A DNA stretch of 64,000 bases from assembly GCA_963674695.2 (NCBI GenBank), contig CAXXGI010000001.1, positions 928,001-992,000 on the forward strand, given 5' to 3'. Each line of letters starts with the position of its first letter. The first letter of the stretch is position 1. Under the pieces are notes generated by a model. It saw nothing but the letters and a program-made list of their open reading frames with translations, ran no database searches and was not told the origin of the DNA. Source of the stretch: a bacterium (lineage in GTDB: Bacteria > UBA10199 > 2-02-FULL-44-16 > JAAZCA01). Positions 45,783-51,439 of the stretch are shown here, in pieces. Made by a program: the position numbers and the translations under genes.

Positions 45783-47264
45783 TTACCACGCCGAGAGCGA
45801 GAGGTAGGCGACGAGGTTCTGCGGGAGGATGCCGAAGAGGATGACAACCATCGCGGCGATGGCCAGGACCGCCACGAGCGGCGCGGGGATGGCCCGCACC
45901 GTTGCATCTTCATCGAAGGCGCCCATCGATGCGTGCGGCTCGCAGAAGACCATCGTCCATACGGGCTTGAGGAAATAAGCGATCGACAGGACCGATCCGA
46001 ATGCGCCGACGAGCACGAGTCCCACATCGCCGCCCCCGAGTGCGGTGAGAAAAAGATCATAGCGCGCCACGAAGCCGACGGTCGGCGGCAGGCCTGCAAG
46101 GGCCAAGAGGATGAGGGAGAAGGTTGCGGCCAATACGGGCCGACGAGAAGCCAGGCCTGCGAGCTGGGCACTGTCCACGCTGCCCGCACCCCCGATGGCA
46201 CTCACCGCGGCAAAGGCCGCCGCCATGAGCACGACCGTCACGAGCAGGAAGAGGATGAGCGCACGCGAAACACCCGAAGGATCGGCCGCGACCGACGGCA
46301 ACACGATCAGCGCCAGCCCCACCTGCGCAATCGCCGCGAAACCGAGCATGCGTTTGAGATTCGTCTGCGCCAACGCGCCGAGGTTGCCCACGACGATCGA
46401 GGCGACGGCGAGCGCTGTGAGCAGACCCCGCCAGAGCGGGCCGATGGCCGCAACCGCGAGCGCCACCCGCATGAAGGCGATGAGCCCCGCCGCCATCGCA
46501 CCGGTGGTGAGGATTACCGCTGCCGCCGGCGGCGCGCCCTCGATCGCATCGGGCATCCAGGCATGAAAGGCCGCGATCGCAATCCGGAGGGCGAAGGCGA
46601 CCGTCACCAATCCCACGCCGACCAGGACGAGCGAACGCATCGGAGAGGCCATGCATTCTGGAATGCGCTCGGCGATCGCCCCCAACTCCGTCGCGCCGGT
46701 GACGCCGAAGAGACAGGCCGCACCCATCGCCATGAAGGCGGTCGCCAGGAGGGAGGGGATGAAGAACTTCACCGCCGCCTCGTGCGCGCGCCCGCCGGCC
46801 CTTCCGCCGACGATCAACGCAACCGCGCCCGCCGCAATGATTTCGAAGGCGATGAGGATCACCACGAGATCGGCGGCGGCAACGAGGAGCGCCATGCCGA
46901 AGGCGATCACGCCCAACATGGCCGCGGGGACACTTCGTTCAACGCCCTCGCCGCGATCGGAGCAAGAGACGAGCAGCGCAAAGGCCGTCGCGATGATCGC
47001 GATCTGCCAGCCGACGATCGTGACGCGATCGATGAGGAACATTCCTTGTGATGCGCCGGAAGCGGATGCCCACATCTGCCAGGAGAGGAAAAAGCTGACA
47101 CCGAGACCTGCACTGAGCACGGCAATGTGTGCACGCCGGGAGGGGCGAACGAGTTCGATTCCACCGACGACGAGTGCGGTCACCGCCAAGACGATGAGCG
47201 GGAGTGCGCTTCGCACGAATGCGACCCCCCCCTGCCCACCCCACTGTACCACCGCTTCGAACAT
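45783..47264 (-). CDS. nuoN: NuoN-like antiporter subunit (divergent)
   Basis: EAAVKFFI, FHAWMPDAIEGAP, QTNLKRMLG, LAGLPPTVGF. Confidence 0.85.
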   Translation of the reverse strand: MFEAVVQWGGQGGVAFVRSALPLIVLAVTALVVGGIELVRPSRRAHIAVLSAGLGVSFFLSWQMWASASGASQGMFLIDRVTIVGWQIAIIATAFALLVSCSDRGEGVERSVPAAMLGVIAFGMALLVAAADLVVILIAFEIIAAGAVALIVGGRAGGRAHEAAVKFFIPSLLATAFMAMGAACLFGVTGATELGAIAERIPECMASPMRSLVLVGVGLVTVAFALRIAIAAFHAWMPDAIEGAPPAAAVILTTGAMAAGLIAFMRVALAVAAIGPLWRGLLTALAVASIVVGNLGALAQTNLKRMLGFAAIAQVGLALIVLPSVAADPSGVSRALILFLLVTVVLMAAAFAAVSAIGGAGSVDSAQLAGLASRRPVLAATFSLILLALAGLPPTVGFVARYDLFLTALGGGDVGLVLVGAFGSVLSIAYFLKPVWTMVFCEPHASMGAFDEDATVRAIPAPLVAVLAIAAMVVILFGILPQNLVAYLSLSAW

Positions 47265-47273
47265 CGAACCTCC

Positions 47274-47363
47274 GTAACTCGTGACTCGTAACTCGTAACT
47301 CGTGACTCGTAACTCGTAACTCGCGAGCTGTTCACGGTTCACGGTTCACGGTTCACGGTTCAC
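47274..47363. repeat. Heptamer arrays at the nuoM/nuoN junction
   Basis: On the coding strand, (GTGAACC)n supplying the nuoM stop, then about 7 GAGTTAC/GAGTCAC units up to the nuoN SD. Confidence 0.85.
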
Positions 47364-49143: not shown

Positions 49144-51132
49144 TCACCCCAGCACCAACACCCCGACGACGACGACGGCGCCGATGAGGACATAGAGCAG
49201 ATACTGTCGCACGGCACCGGTCTGTGCAGCGGCCGCGACCGACGCGAAGAAACCGATCGCGCGCGCGCTGCCCCCGATGAGAATACCGGACAGAAACGTG
49301 CGGTCGATCAATTTCCACAAGATCACGCGCGCGACCCACCCGATGGGGCGCACCACGAGCGTCTGCGCTATTTCTTCGAGATACCAGCCCGAGCGCGCGC
49401 TGTGATAGAGCGGCGCGATGCGCCGGAGCAGACGCTCCGACCAATCGCGGCGCTGCGCATAGATGAGCCAACCCAGGATCGAACAGTGCACCGTCCAGAG
49501 GACGGCGATGACATAGAGGATGATCTGCACCGCGCGCGAGACATTATTCATGCCGCGGCTGACCTCGCCCGGCAGGAGTTCGCCCAGCCAGACGCCGAAC
49601 CGATCGGCGCCGCCCAGGATTTCGGGGACGGCGAGCACCCCGCCGAAGAGACAGGCGGTGGCCAGCAGCATCAGCGGCACCACCATCGCCACGGGCGATT
49701 CGGTCACGCGTTTGAAACGATCGAGTTCGATCTCGGTGCGACCGAAGAAGATCGCTCCCGCCACGCGAAAGATCGCAAAGGCGATCATCCCCATGGCCGC
49801 GAAGGTCATGATCCAGATGAGGACCTCGCCGCGCGCATAGGCATGGATGAGAATAGCGGAGAGCCCCGCAAATCCCGCCAGGGGAACCACGCCCGCGAGC
49901 GTAGCCGCAGCGATGACGAAGGTCCAGGCCGTGATCGGCATGCGCTGACCCAGGCCGCCCATGCCGAAGAGATCGCTCTCGCCCTGCAGGGCACGCATCG
50001 CACCGGCGGCGGCGAGCATGCAGAGCAGGAGTGCAAGCGCGACGACCACGAGATGATAGACGGCGGTGGTAAAGACCCCCAACCCCGCCGCGATGAGGAC
50101 GATGCCGAGCTCGGCGGCGGCGATCTGCGCAAGGATGCGTCGCACATCGGTCGACGCCAGCGCCGTGGCGCCCGCCGCGAGTGCGGTGATTCCGCCGAGC
50201 AACGCCATCGCCTTGAGGACACTCGGCGCGAGCGCGAAGATGCCATCCATGCGCGCAACGAGGGCGACCGCCGTAGCGCCGATGACCACCGCCTGCAGAA
50301 AGGCCGCGACCGGAACGGGCGAACGCGTCGTCGAGGGAAGCCAGAACAAAAACGGCACCTGTGCGGAACGCACCGCCACCGCCACGAGCAGCAGCAACGC
50401 GATGACGTGCGCAACCGGCAAAAACGCGGCCTGATACTGCACTACGTTTTCGAACGCGAGCGCGCCATCGCCGGGAGGAACATCGGCCGCCGCCATCGCC
50501 CCGACGATGAGAAAGCAGGCGGCCATGAGCGCCGCATCGCCAATGCGATCGACGACGAAGACCACGACTCCATGCTGCGCACCGTCGCGATCGGAGGAGA
50601 CGAATCCCGCCGTCAGCGATGCACACAACCCCACGCCCATCCATCCGACGATGAAGAACAGAAGGTTCTCCGCCAGCACCGCCATGAGCGCGAAGAAGAG
50701 CATCGCATGGATGAGAGAAGCGGCGCGCGCCAAGGAGCGCCGCCCCTCCATCGCGCCGGGCAGCGCCATCTGCGCAAAGAGGGCCGCGATGCTGAGCGTC
50801 AACCCGAGCGTGAGCGAGAGCTGATCGAGACGCAGACCCACGTCGACCACGAAATCCTTTGAGGCGATCCAGGTGAAGAGCGGTCCGGTGATCGCCGCAG
50901 CAGAGCCGACCTCGAATCCCATGAGCGTCCAAAACAGGACGATCATGATGGCGACGGTGAGCAGGGCACCGACGACGCCGATGAAGACGCTCAGCGGCCG
51001 AAATCGTTCATGCTCGGCGCGTGCGCCCGCCATCGCGATGAACGCGCAGCATGCCGACGACGTCAGCGGAACGGCCAGGACGCACCAGATGAGTGTCTGC
51101 AGTGAAACGATCTGATAGAGCGATTCGAGCAT
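49144..51132 (-). CDS. nuoL: NuoL-like antiporter subunit (divergent, full length)
   Basis: GLRLDQLS, GWMGVGLC, RIGD, SAQVP..WLP, MGGLGQRMPIT, ESP..MVVPL, QTGAVRQY. Confidence 0.88.
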   Translation of the reverse strand: MLESLYQIVSLQTLIWCVLAVPLTSSACCAFIAMAGARAEHERFRPLSVFIGVVGALLTVAIMIVLFWTLMGFEVGSAAAITGPLFTWIASKDFVVDVGLRLDQLSLTLGLTLSIAALFAQMALPGAMEGRRSLARAASLIHAMLFFALMAVLAENLLFFIVGWMGVGLCASLTAGFVSSDRDGAQHGVVVFVVDRIGDAALMAACFLIVGAMAAADVPPGDGALAFENVVQYQAAFLPVAHVIALLLLVAVAVRSAQVPFLFWLPSTTRSPVPVAAFLQAVVIGATAVALVARMDGIFALAPSVLKAMALLGGITALAAGATALASTDVRRILAQIAAAELGIVLIAAGLGVFTTAVYHLVVVALALLLCMLAAAGAMRALQGESDLFGMGGLGQRMPITAWTFVIAAATLAGVVPLAGFAGLSAILIHAYARGEVLIWIMTFAAMGMIAFAIFRVAGAIFFGRTEIELDRFKRVTESPVAMVVPLMLLATACLFGGVLAVPEILGGADRFGVWLGELLPGEVSRGMNNVSRAVQIILYVIAVLWTVHCSILGWLIYAQRRDWSERLLRRIAPLYHSARSGWYLEEIAQTLVVRPIGWVARVILWKLIDRTFLSGILIGGSARAIGFFASVAAAAQTGAVRQYLLYVLIGAVVVVGVLVLG

Positions 51133-51133
51133 G

Positions 51134-51439
51134 CTATCCCTTCAAGAGCGAAAGGTCATCCACATCGCGCCCGGCGTCTTTGCGCTCGAGCGCACGGGCG
51201 AGTCCAAAGCCGACGATCACCTGCAGGACCATGATGACGAAAAGGGTGAGCACGAGCACCCGGCCCGCCAACGCAAGATTCCAGCGGGAGAAGGTCACGA
51301 CCGCCACCACCGCCGCCAGGAGCATGAGCTGTGCCGACAAGAGGATCGCCACGAGATTTCGGCGTACGATCATGCCGAATGCCCCCAACACAAAGAGCAA
51401 CGCACTCGCGGCGAATGCCGGATGCAACGCGGGAATCAT
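51134..51439 (-). CDS. nuoK: NuoK-like subunit (divergent)
   Basis: 101 aa, LLFVLGAFGMIVRRNL...DVDDLSLLKG, three TMs. Confidence 0.88.
   Translation of the reverse strand: MIPALHPAFAASALLFVLGAFGMIVRRNLVAILLSAQLMLLAAVVAVVTFSRWNLALAGRVLVLTLFVIMVLQVIVGFGLARALERKDAGRDVDDLSLLKG

Follow-up and report, generated by a model that had tools for sequence, protein, structure and literature searches.

A cluster of seven genes in a 64,000-nucleotide stretch of bacterial DNA (contig CAXXGI010000001.1, positions 928,001 to 992,000 of the forward strand; hereafter the window) encodes homologs of six membrane subunits of respiratory complex I, together with a protein that we call X. The genes follow one another on the minus strand in the order X-nuoH-J-K-L-M-N and form a stand-alone cluster. 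We propose, with a probability of about 0.6, that their products make up a redox-dead and proton-dead membrane arm that is still under constraint and is kept as a non-pumping complex, most likely with X. By origin, the cluster would probably be the membrane arm left behind by a complex I peculiar to this lineage.

Proton-path residues in the membrane subunits

The window proteins were aligned subunit by subunit with the E. coli K-12 Nuo proteins, taken by accession, using pairwise MAFFT. An earlier comparison by eye (the original prediction) had called 22 residues of the proton path in NuoK, L, M and N, and every call was reproduced: 17 of the 22 residues are replaced and five are kept. NuoK carries E36Q and E72Q. 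The changes in NuoL are E144M, K229R, H254Q, H338V, K342L and K399L, with D178 and H334 unchanged; those in NuoM are E144Q, K234P, H248V, H322Q and H348Q, with K265 and E407 unchanged; and those in NuoN are K217R, K247M, H305Q and K395R, with E133 unchanged. All the incoming residues are non-titratable (Glu to Gln three times, His to Gln four times, Lys to Arg three times, the rest being Met, Leu, Val or Pro). Placed on the transmembrane (TM) helices, the substitutions convert the TM5 Glu, TM7 Lys and TM12 Lys of NuoL to Met, Arg and Leu, the TM5 Glu and TM7 Lys of NuoM to Gln and Pro, and the Lys residues in TM7, TM8 and TM12 of NuoN to Arg, Met and Arg. Seven further positions, which we take to belong to the same path, were added to the list. 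Two are changed (NuoL D400S and NuoM K173T) and five are not (NuoL R175; NuoM H241; NuoN E154, K158 and H224), bringing the count to 19 of 29.

The same columns were recovered in MAFFT alignments of 10 to 12 sequences that included relatives, and in HMMER alignments to known structures (NuoK against 8e9g_K, 4he8_K and 3rko_K, from M. smegmatis, T. thermophilus and E. coli, respectively; NuoM against plant ND4, 7aqw_M). No shifted Glu, Lys or His was found at the listed sites in the pairwise, multiple or HMMER-to-PDB alignments.

NuoM residues K234, K265, H322, H348 and E407 are present in all 11 of the relatives' sequences compared. The 38 database homologs of NuoM that were aligned, of 120 listed, keep these five sites as well, with the exception of one H322Q, and position 144 is Glu or Asp in all 38. 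Among the best 149 cluster representatives retrieved with the NuoK-like protein from 1.84 billion, 126 have Glu at both sites and eight lack an acid at both, three of these eight having Gln at each; the acid-less state of NuoK is rare, not unique. One paper reports that changes at NuoL K229, NuoM K234 and NuoN K217 result in loss of function, and that E144A or E144Q in NuoL or NuoM causes total loss of activity (PMC3046159). A second describes mutants at NuoM E144 or NuoN K395 as fully inactive (PMC8357420). These mutant data support the importance of the sites, at several of which, according to the original prediction, single mutations abolish pumping.

Columns invariant in E. coli and in three to four relatives with a canonical operon served as background. 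The listed sites, drawn up after the earlier reader had seen the sequence, are changed in 17 of 22 cases as compared to 140 of 386 for the other invariant columns (odds ratio 6.0; Fisher p = 1.8e-4); for other invariant charged or His residues the figure is 14 of 47. Path sites are thus preferentially changed, at a rate above that of their neighbours, as the original prediction implied. The background is itself high in NuoM, where 32 of the 109 columns conserved at 95% or more in 39 other sequences differ in the window, two nearly invariant TM7 prolines among them.

Loss of charge spans the whole path and goes beyond NuoK, L, M and N, since it affects NuoH as well, the subunit that normally docks the Q-module. 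NuoH is the most altered of all: 54 of its 83 invariant columns are changed, two of 27 invariant charged or Tyr residues are kept (K274 and R293), the residues of the TM1-2 loop are deleted and the acids of the E-channel are gone. In NuoJ, 12 of 21 invariant columns are changed.

Lost partners and reduced clusters in related genomes

The genome from which the window derives (G000) measures 3.03 Mb in three contigs and is rated 100% complete. Genome-wide, the PF00361 family is represented by the three genes of the cluster alone. The genome gave no PF00346 match for the NuoD family, no match to NuoA, NuoB or NuoCD in a tblastn search with 13 E. coli Nuo proteins (cut-off for NuoB, 1e-3) and no TIGR01971 match for NuoI at E ≤ 1e-15. 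The cluster contains no sequence resembling NuoE, F or G; such sequences occur only at two places far from it on C1 (482-484 kb and 802-804 kb), which are probably soluble NADH-linked Fe-S modules. PF01058 has one match, on contig 3 (C3). Heme-copper and bd oxidases were not found in this genome; a Rnf-type complex is encoded at C3 1045-1049 kb.

The related genomes and loci compared are designated G001 to G015 and by L numbers. In relatives of the same family or order, the canonical operon reads A-B-X-CD-E-F-G-H-J-K-L-M-N and specifies every canonical residue (loci L016 in G015, L043 in G006, L044 in G001 and L042 in G003). Its NuoH is about 420 aa long, with an extra hydrophobic insert, and its NuoG is short (about 470-500 aa). 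The nuoI gene was found in all five canonical relatives searched (110-122 bits), encoded away from the operon. Judged by gene order, the window cluster is the remainder left by removal of the genes flanking X on either side and by loss of the unlinked nuoI. The nearest homologs of the cluster are those of its own family, and the gene adjoining nuoN in G003 has a counterpart, 71% identical, 5 kb past nuoN in the window, a synteny that supports descent in place. A stretch of lower GC (about 40900-45720; 0.55-0.58) separates nuoN from this counterpart. It contains a subtilase-like open reading frame (ORF) of 913 aa (41010-43751) and a 595-aa ORF matching no Pfam family (43930-45717), and is probably an insertion.

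Derivation from a degenerate paralog was also considered. The second nuo-like cluster of G003 (contig C16) proved to be an ordinary nuo cluster with NuoI, so that ancient paralogy gains no support. Elsewhere in G003 (L015, 12531-17960) the nuo operon is split between nuoE and nuoF by genes for DarT, a Macro-domain protein, DUF5131 and two Schlafen/AlbA_2 proteins; the interruption looks like a defence island, or may be an assembly join.

RpoB of G000 is 82% identical to its homologs in G001 and G003, which share 85% with each other; identity to the G015 protein is 75% for all of them, and to that of E. coli 56-57%. RpoB being ordinary, the genome as a whole is not accelerated and the acceleration is specific to the Nuo proteins. 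Identities of the G000 subunits to those of relatives, with the values among the relatives themselves in brackets, are 24-29% for NuoH (52-62%), 28-29% for NuoJ (46-53%), 37-38% for NuoK (59-68%), 39-45% for NuoL (63-69%), 43-48% for NuoM (56-64%) and 37-43% for NuoN (44-55%). Against E. coli the window subunits show 27-31%.

Seven further reduced clusters, recognised by gene content (their lack of nuoEFG) without regard to residues, occur in G002, G007, G008, G009, G012, G014 and L061, all with path residues lost. G002 has X-H'-J'-K-L-M-N, where H' and J' are seen just as TM-rich ORFs. G008 has X and a CD remnant followed by H-J-K-L-M-N, and G009 has X-J-K-L-M-N. G014 (L028/L057) and L061 are reduced to a minimal X-L-M, with open frames, and G007 (L029) and G012 (L030) have A-B-CD-H-J-K-L-M-N without nuoEFG and without X. 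The canonical clusters of G001, G003, G015 and G013 keep all the path residues. As to the question raised with the original prediction, whether orthologs carry the same substitutions, canonical relatives retain every listed residue, and the reduced clusters share some of the replacements.

With the window counted, NuoM K234 is lost in all eight reduced clusters and E144 in seven of the eight. NuoK E36 is lost in six of six (Gln in four of them) and E72 in four of six, and NuoN K395R is found in all five clusters with an aligned NuoN. GC pressure was rejected as the cause of K395R, since the clusters that carry it range in GC from 0.36 to 0.65. The replacement residues at the same sites differ among the other reduced clusters. 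That such changes recur in parallel in different lineages hints at selection, short of proof.

Reduced genomes are scattered among canonical ones in a tree built from RpoB; the branches starred in it force at least three changes, and parsimony gives five. A tree of this single gene in which the six family members are held together was rejected by the approximately unbiased (AU) test (p-AU 1e-10). Loss of oxidases was examined as a possible correlate of the reduced clusters and rejected. COX1 was found in three of 22 genomes and cytochrome bd in three of 22; among 12 relatives within the family, cytochrome bd was present in one (G003) and COX1 in none. Since most canonical genomes are without oxidases too, their loss does not track the reduced clusters.

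Between G007 and G012, dN/dS ranges from 0.31 to 0.48 across H-N and CD as against 0.08 for RpoB, with dS near saturation; on these ratios the two complexes appear relaxed, not neutral. NuoB of both keeps its four cysteines, and the NuoCD residues at E. coli H224 and Y273 are replaced. These genomes may encode a degenerate yet Fe-S-bearing complex. The minimal clusters of G014 and L061 come from two very divergent genomes (identities of 33% for X, 26% for NuoL and 21% for NuoM).

X adjoins the remaining membrane genes in six of the eight reduced clusters (five of seven outside the window). In view of this co-retention we propose that X functions jointly with the L/M core. In canonical relatives X lies between nuoB and nuoCD. 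The window protein is 63% identical to its homologs in G001 and G003, a value far above those of the Nuo remnants, and X was found in 24 of 41 related genomes. Its 94 homologs, all unnamed or annotated as "hypothetical", come from metagenome-assembled genomes labelled Pseudomonadota, Deltaproteobacteria or "bacterium". X has two invariant cysteines and a strongly conserved Trp-rich motif. Its AlphaFold2 model (pLDDT 91.3) is all-helical, and the protein is predicted to be periplasmic and tetratricopeptide repeat (TPR)-like. With this model, the best fold match in the PDB was BamD/TPR-like (E 2.2e-3, TM-score 0.25) and none reached E ≤ 0.001; the Atlas returned "hypothetical" clusters at 0.92-0.93 and YfiO/TPR leads under 0.9. 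A complex prediction for NuoL and mature X, run without controls and with NuoL as the sole partner tried, scored 0.00 and carries no weight either way.

Constraint on the cluster and competing explanations

The six Nuo-like genes contain no stop codon and no frameshift over 2,231 codons, and their alignments are full-length. A neutral, substitution-only simulation carried to 10% amino-acid change yielded a mean of 5.8 stops and no stop-free run in 30; indels, which this simulation leaves aside, would add to the disruption. The 203 replacements at formerly invariant columns have a mean BLOSUM62 score of -0.27, as against -0.77 ± 0.11 under neutrality, and none of 300 neutral simulations (of single-step change) matched the observed mean. 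Hydropathy profiles correlate with those of G003 (r = 0.84 for NuoL, 0.87 for NuoM, 0.86 for NuoN and 0.64 for NuoH; 0.89-0.92 for a canonical pair). Open frames, conservative replacements and the preferential change at path sites together bear out the view, taken in the original prediction, that this is not the random decay of a dead gene. The closest NuoM is 48% identical in 41 related genomes and 48-49% among 5.8 billion proteins, too distant for a dN/dS estimate, so that the case for constraint on this branch rests on the open frames and the quality of the substitutions. For NuoK, the best match among 1.84 billion representatives shows 37-45% identity. Three public contig-level runs, from one study, are identical to the window in the coding parts.

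The following series of events would account for these features. All the redox and peripheral subunits of an ancestral operon A-B-X-CD-E-F-G-H-J-K-L-M-N, accompanied by an unlinked nuoI, have been lost from this genome. With the driver gone, buried ionisable residues would bring nothing but costs (destabilisation and possibly leak); no longer needed, they would have been replaced by amides, fixed-charge Arg or hydrophobic residues, with a gain in stability, avoidance of leak, or both. The titratable chain has been dismantled along its length, from the NuoH E-channel and the NuoK Glu pair to the TM5, TM7, TM8 and TM12 residues of NuoN, M and L and the connecting His residues. The resulting arm would be incapable of redox-driven proton pumping or of Mrp-type antiport, and its genes would be retained as a translatable unit with a preserved fold. 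It might serve as an anchor or scaffold for X in the membrane, or fill another non-protonic role, with selection still acting on the assembled body in the membrane, whose role would probably be that of a partner to X.

The original prediction spoke of selection to seal or retune the proton pathway. The non-random character of the changes is supported. A retuned pump is not, NuoA, B, CD, E, F, G and I being lost: with the redox subunits, the NuoH E-channel acids and the TM1-2 loop gone, nothing is left to drive it. Selection to seal the path is plausible. Alternatively, constraint may have been lost at sites serving proton transfer only, the changes being filtered by what the membrane interior tolerates; this and sealing cannot be separated. 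More tentatively, X and complex I's antiporter-like subunits might form an unrecognised membrane machine, neither redox nor protonic, that arises repeatedly after loss of electron input. Selection for stability or against leak would then remove the charges, and the reason for keeping the L/M core would be that X exerts its action on it or by way of it. We regard this extension as possible, with the odds against it.

Several points weigh against the view that a non-pumping arm is kept under constraint. Purifying selection on this branch is deduced from open frames and substitution quality, high GC eases the keeping of long open frames, and the six subunits and X are known here from their genes alone. 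The large share of changed invariant sites and the repeats in three spacers speak for relaxation. The conservation of X could have causes unconnected with the membrane subunits, its place in the operon being incidental. G007 and G012 are an imperfect proxy, NuoA, B and CD being still present there. Part of the divergence could have accrued in a degenerate complete complex of their kind, the gene loss being recent, and the series X-HJKLMN, X-JKLMN, X-LM can be read as stepwise erosion. As for repeated origin, the group submitted to the AU test was named after the first tree had been seen, and a NuoL tree weakly groups the reduced clusters (support 86/97, branch 0.08, with a long-branch warning). 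A single origin of the reduced clusters, followed by transfer or differential loss, therefore retains a residual probability.

Alternatively, the cluster would be a functionless relic, six membrane genes left decaying by the deletions of the redox genes and due to be lost, whose frames are still open owing to time and high GC. The loss of every partner would fit, as would the change of 36% of otherwise invariant columns in NuoK, L, M and N and of 65% in NuoH, the disappearance of the nearly invariant, helix-breaking prolines from NuoM TM7, the insertion of repeats and the ever smaller remnants in relatives. We consider this outcome unlikely. It would have to reconcile 2,231 codons free of stops with a neutral expectation of 5.8 that no simulated run escaped, full-length alignments without frameshift, replacements more conservative than neutral ones, and the retention of hydropathy profiles and ribosome-binding motifs. 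Moreover, the degenerate clusters of G007 and G012 have persisted since their divergence with dN/dS below 0.5.

Constraint might instead reflect a re-tuned translocator of ions or solutes, perhaps gated by X and working on the residues that remain (NuoM K265 and E407; NuoN E133, E154 and K158; NuoL R175, D178 and H334). Each of NuoL, M and N does keep some path residues, fold and topology are kept, and there is precedent, as in NDH-1MS, for antiporter-like subunits acting with accessory proteins (compare bioRxiv 10.64898/2026.08.03.742399). A continuous TM5-TM7-TM8-TM12 chain, however, survives in no subunit, the two carboxylates of NuoK and the acids of NuoH have disappeared, and the mutant studies cited above report loss of function on single changes at NuoL K229, NuoM K234 and NuoN K217, total loss of activity for E144A or E144Q in NuoL or NuoM, and inactivity of NuoM E144 or NuoN K395 mutants (PMC3046159, PMC8357420). 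The other reduced clusters have different residues at the same sites, which argues against a defined new site, and the genome has no DabA. We rate this explanation as improbable, a little more so than the relic.

That a different redox module drives the arm is very doubtful. Candidates for such a module would be the two loci with NuoE/F-like genes (C1 482-484 kb and 802-804 kb) or the contig 3 protein that matches PF01058, and the presence of NuoE/F/G-like matches and of one PF01058 match is what speaks for them. These genes are unlinked to the cluster, a NuoD-family protein is absent, and tblastn gave no NuoB-like match at 1e-3. The loop and charged residues with which NuoH would face the Q-module have disappeared, and the proton path would be missing even given a driver. 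As to an alignment artefact, with the Glu, Lys and His residues present at shifted positions, the low identity to E. coli could invite the suspicion, and the agreement of pairwise MAFFT, multiple MAFFT and HMMER-to-PDB alignments, with the flanking motifs conserved, practically disposes of it.

A non-pumping membrane arm retained with X, the reading we favour, can be set beside several known systems. The cluster shares with respiratory complex I the homologs of H, J, K, L, M and N in canonical order, and the top family models for its L, M, N and K proteins are NuoL, NuoM, NuoN and NuoK. It differs in being without NuoA, the Q-module (B, C/D and I) and a linked N-module, in the replacement of 17 of 22 path residues, in the loss of the NuoH E-channel and Q-loop residues, and in the extra periplasmic protein X of the operon. 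The 11-subunit type without an NADH module, represented here by G007 and G012, has likewise lost nuoEFG and has the same family origin, and G007 and G012 share some substitutions (NuoK E36Q, NuoM H322Q and NuoN K395R) with the window. They keep NuoA, B and CD, whereas the window cluster is without the whole Q-module; known 11-subunit complex I-like enzymes are reported to keep the pumping residues.

Mrp antiporters resemble the cluster in combining PF00361 subunits with a NuoK/MrpC-like subunit in the absence of a redox module. On the window proteins, though, Mrp A/D models score 55-136 bits as against 237-365 bits for Nuo models, a clear difference from which we conclude that the cluster is not an Mrp antiporter. 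No MrpB, E, F or G-like gene lies within the cluster, which holds X, H, J, K, L, M and N only, and the Lys and Glu conserved between Mrp and complex I are replaced. The NdhD3/F3-CupA portion of NDH-1MS and DabAB, in which a PF00361 pair works with a non-redox soluble partner, recall the X-L-M arrangement of G014 and L061. NDH-1MS and Dab systems stay energy-coupled, keep their proton paths and have cytoplasmic partners. The proton path is lost in the window cluster, and X, for which a periplasmic location is predicted, has no relationship to their partners. A search of the genome for DabA (PF10070) gave no match. Finally, pseudoenzymes retained as scaffolds offer a parallel: as here, catalytic or transfer residues have been exchanged on a conserved fold, in genes that last under constraint; those are single domains and the present case concerns a six-subunit membrane assembly. 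The literature searched, supplements being outside its scope, yielded no account of Nuo membrane arms that stand alone and have lost their charges.

Research on complex I relies on point mutants to establish which of the buried charges move protons, and the cluster is a natural, multi-site version of these that has probably arisen several times. If the proteins are made, it would separate the residues needed for folding and assembly from those needed for proton transfer, show the fate of an energy-converting module after loss of its driver, and perhaps point to a new function of antiporter-like subunits paired with a protein of the periplasm. Should the cluster be a slowly dying relic, it would call for caution in annotation: the M and K proteins score above the NCBIfam cut-offs, so that annotation pipelines would call them NuoM and NuoK, and metabolic reconstructions would credit the organism with parts of an absent complex I.

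Gene features, spacer repeats and neighbouring loci

Positions, strands and family matches of the seven genes and of the three spacers that contain repeats, in window coordinates
Feature	Positions	Strand	Length	Remarks
X	53094..53939	-	281 aa	signal-like N-terminal helix; predicted all-alpha TPR-like fold
X/H spacer	52877..53093			intergenic; REP-like palindromic repeat inside
NuoH-like, strongly diverged	51944..52876	-	310 aa	PF00146 E 1.9e-7, C-terminal part alone
NuoJ-like	51436..51933	-	165 aa	NCBIfam NuoJ E 5e-4, far under cut-off
NuoK-like	51134..51439	-	101 aa	PF00420 E 2.1e-16; Q37, Q73
NuoL-like	49144..51132	-	662 aa	PF00361; TIGR01974 over 14-659, 310 bits vs cut-off 407.5
L/M spacer	48856..49143			heptamer tandem array CGTGACT/CGTAACT, 9.7 copies (Tandem Repeats Finder, TRF)
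NuoM-like	47353..48855	-	500 aa	PF00361; TIGR01972 365 bits, above cut-off
M/N spacer	47265..47352			heptamer tandem arrays CGTAACT x7, GTTCACG x5
NuoN-like	45783..47264	-	493 aa	PF00361; TIGR01770 236.7 bits vs cut-off 332.6

The three PF00361 matches of the cluster score 149.9, 137.4 and 117.5 bits (gathering cut-off 21.5). A Pfam search with the J and X proteins matched no family. Among the NCBIfam models, those for NuoM and NuoK exceed their cut-offs and those for NuoL, NuoN, NuoJ and NuoH fall below theirs; in phmmer comparisons the NuoJ-like protein scores 16-34 bits with the NuoJ of relatives. The NuoL-like protein is full length, C-terminal part included, and the PDB matches of the NuoN-like protein are NuoN/ND2 chains. 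J and K overlap by 4 bp, and K and L adjoin. Purine-rich, Shine-Dalgarno-like motifs lie at the proper distance in six of the seven genes, that of M being weak; the ATG of X has GGGGGA upstream and the start codon of NuoN is preceded by GGAGG at 6 nt. Scans for promoter-like sites returned one (1.2 expected) and for terminator-like sites 11 (8.6 ± 3.5 expected).

The GC-rich palindrome in the X/H spacer (about 52950-53010), which resembles repetitive extragenic palindromic (REP) elements, has 266 blastn-short matches in the genome, with core coverage up to about 227-fold, and reaches a depth of 350-750 in the public contig runs as compared to about 22 in its flanks. The L/M spacer repeat is likewise multi-copy in the genome and in sequencing runs. 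Intergenic tandem arrays with units of 7-8 nt are found in the window at 47273-47364, 48862-48936, 56909-56988, 61182-61243 and 45749-45780; the units are CGTAACT/CGTGACT (7-10 copies), GTTCACG (5), GTTCACT (9) and ATCGAACC (10). Genome-wide, TRF listed 501 arrays, 106 of them with period 7 and with few dominant units. Where an upstream start is chosen, such arrays are translated as spurious repeat peptides at the 5' ends of genes.

A 783-aa ORF on the plus strand (54483-56834) joins a branched-chain amino-acid transporter domain (PF05525, residues 6-421) to a domain of the acetate/butyrate-kinase family (PF00871, residues 465-731), an unusual fusion of transporter and kinase.

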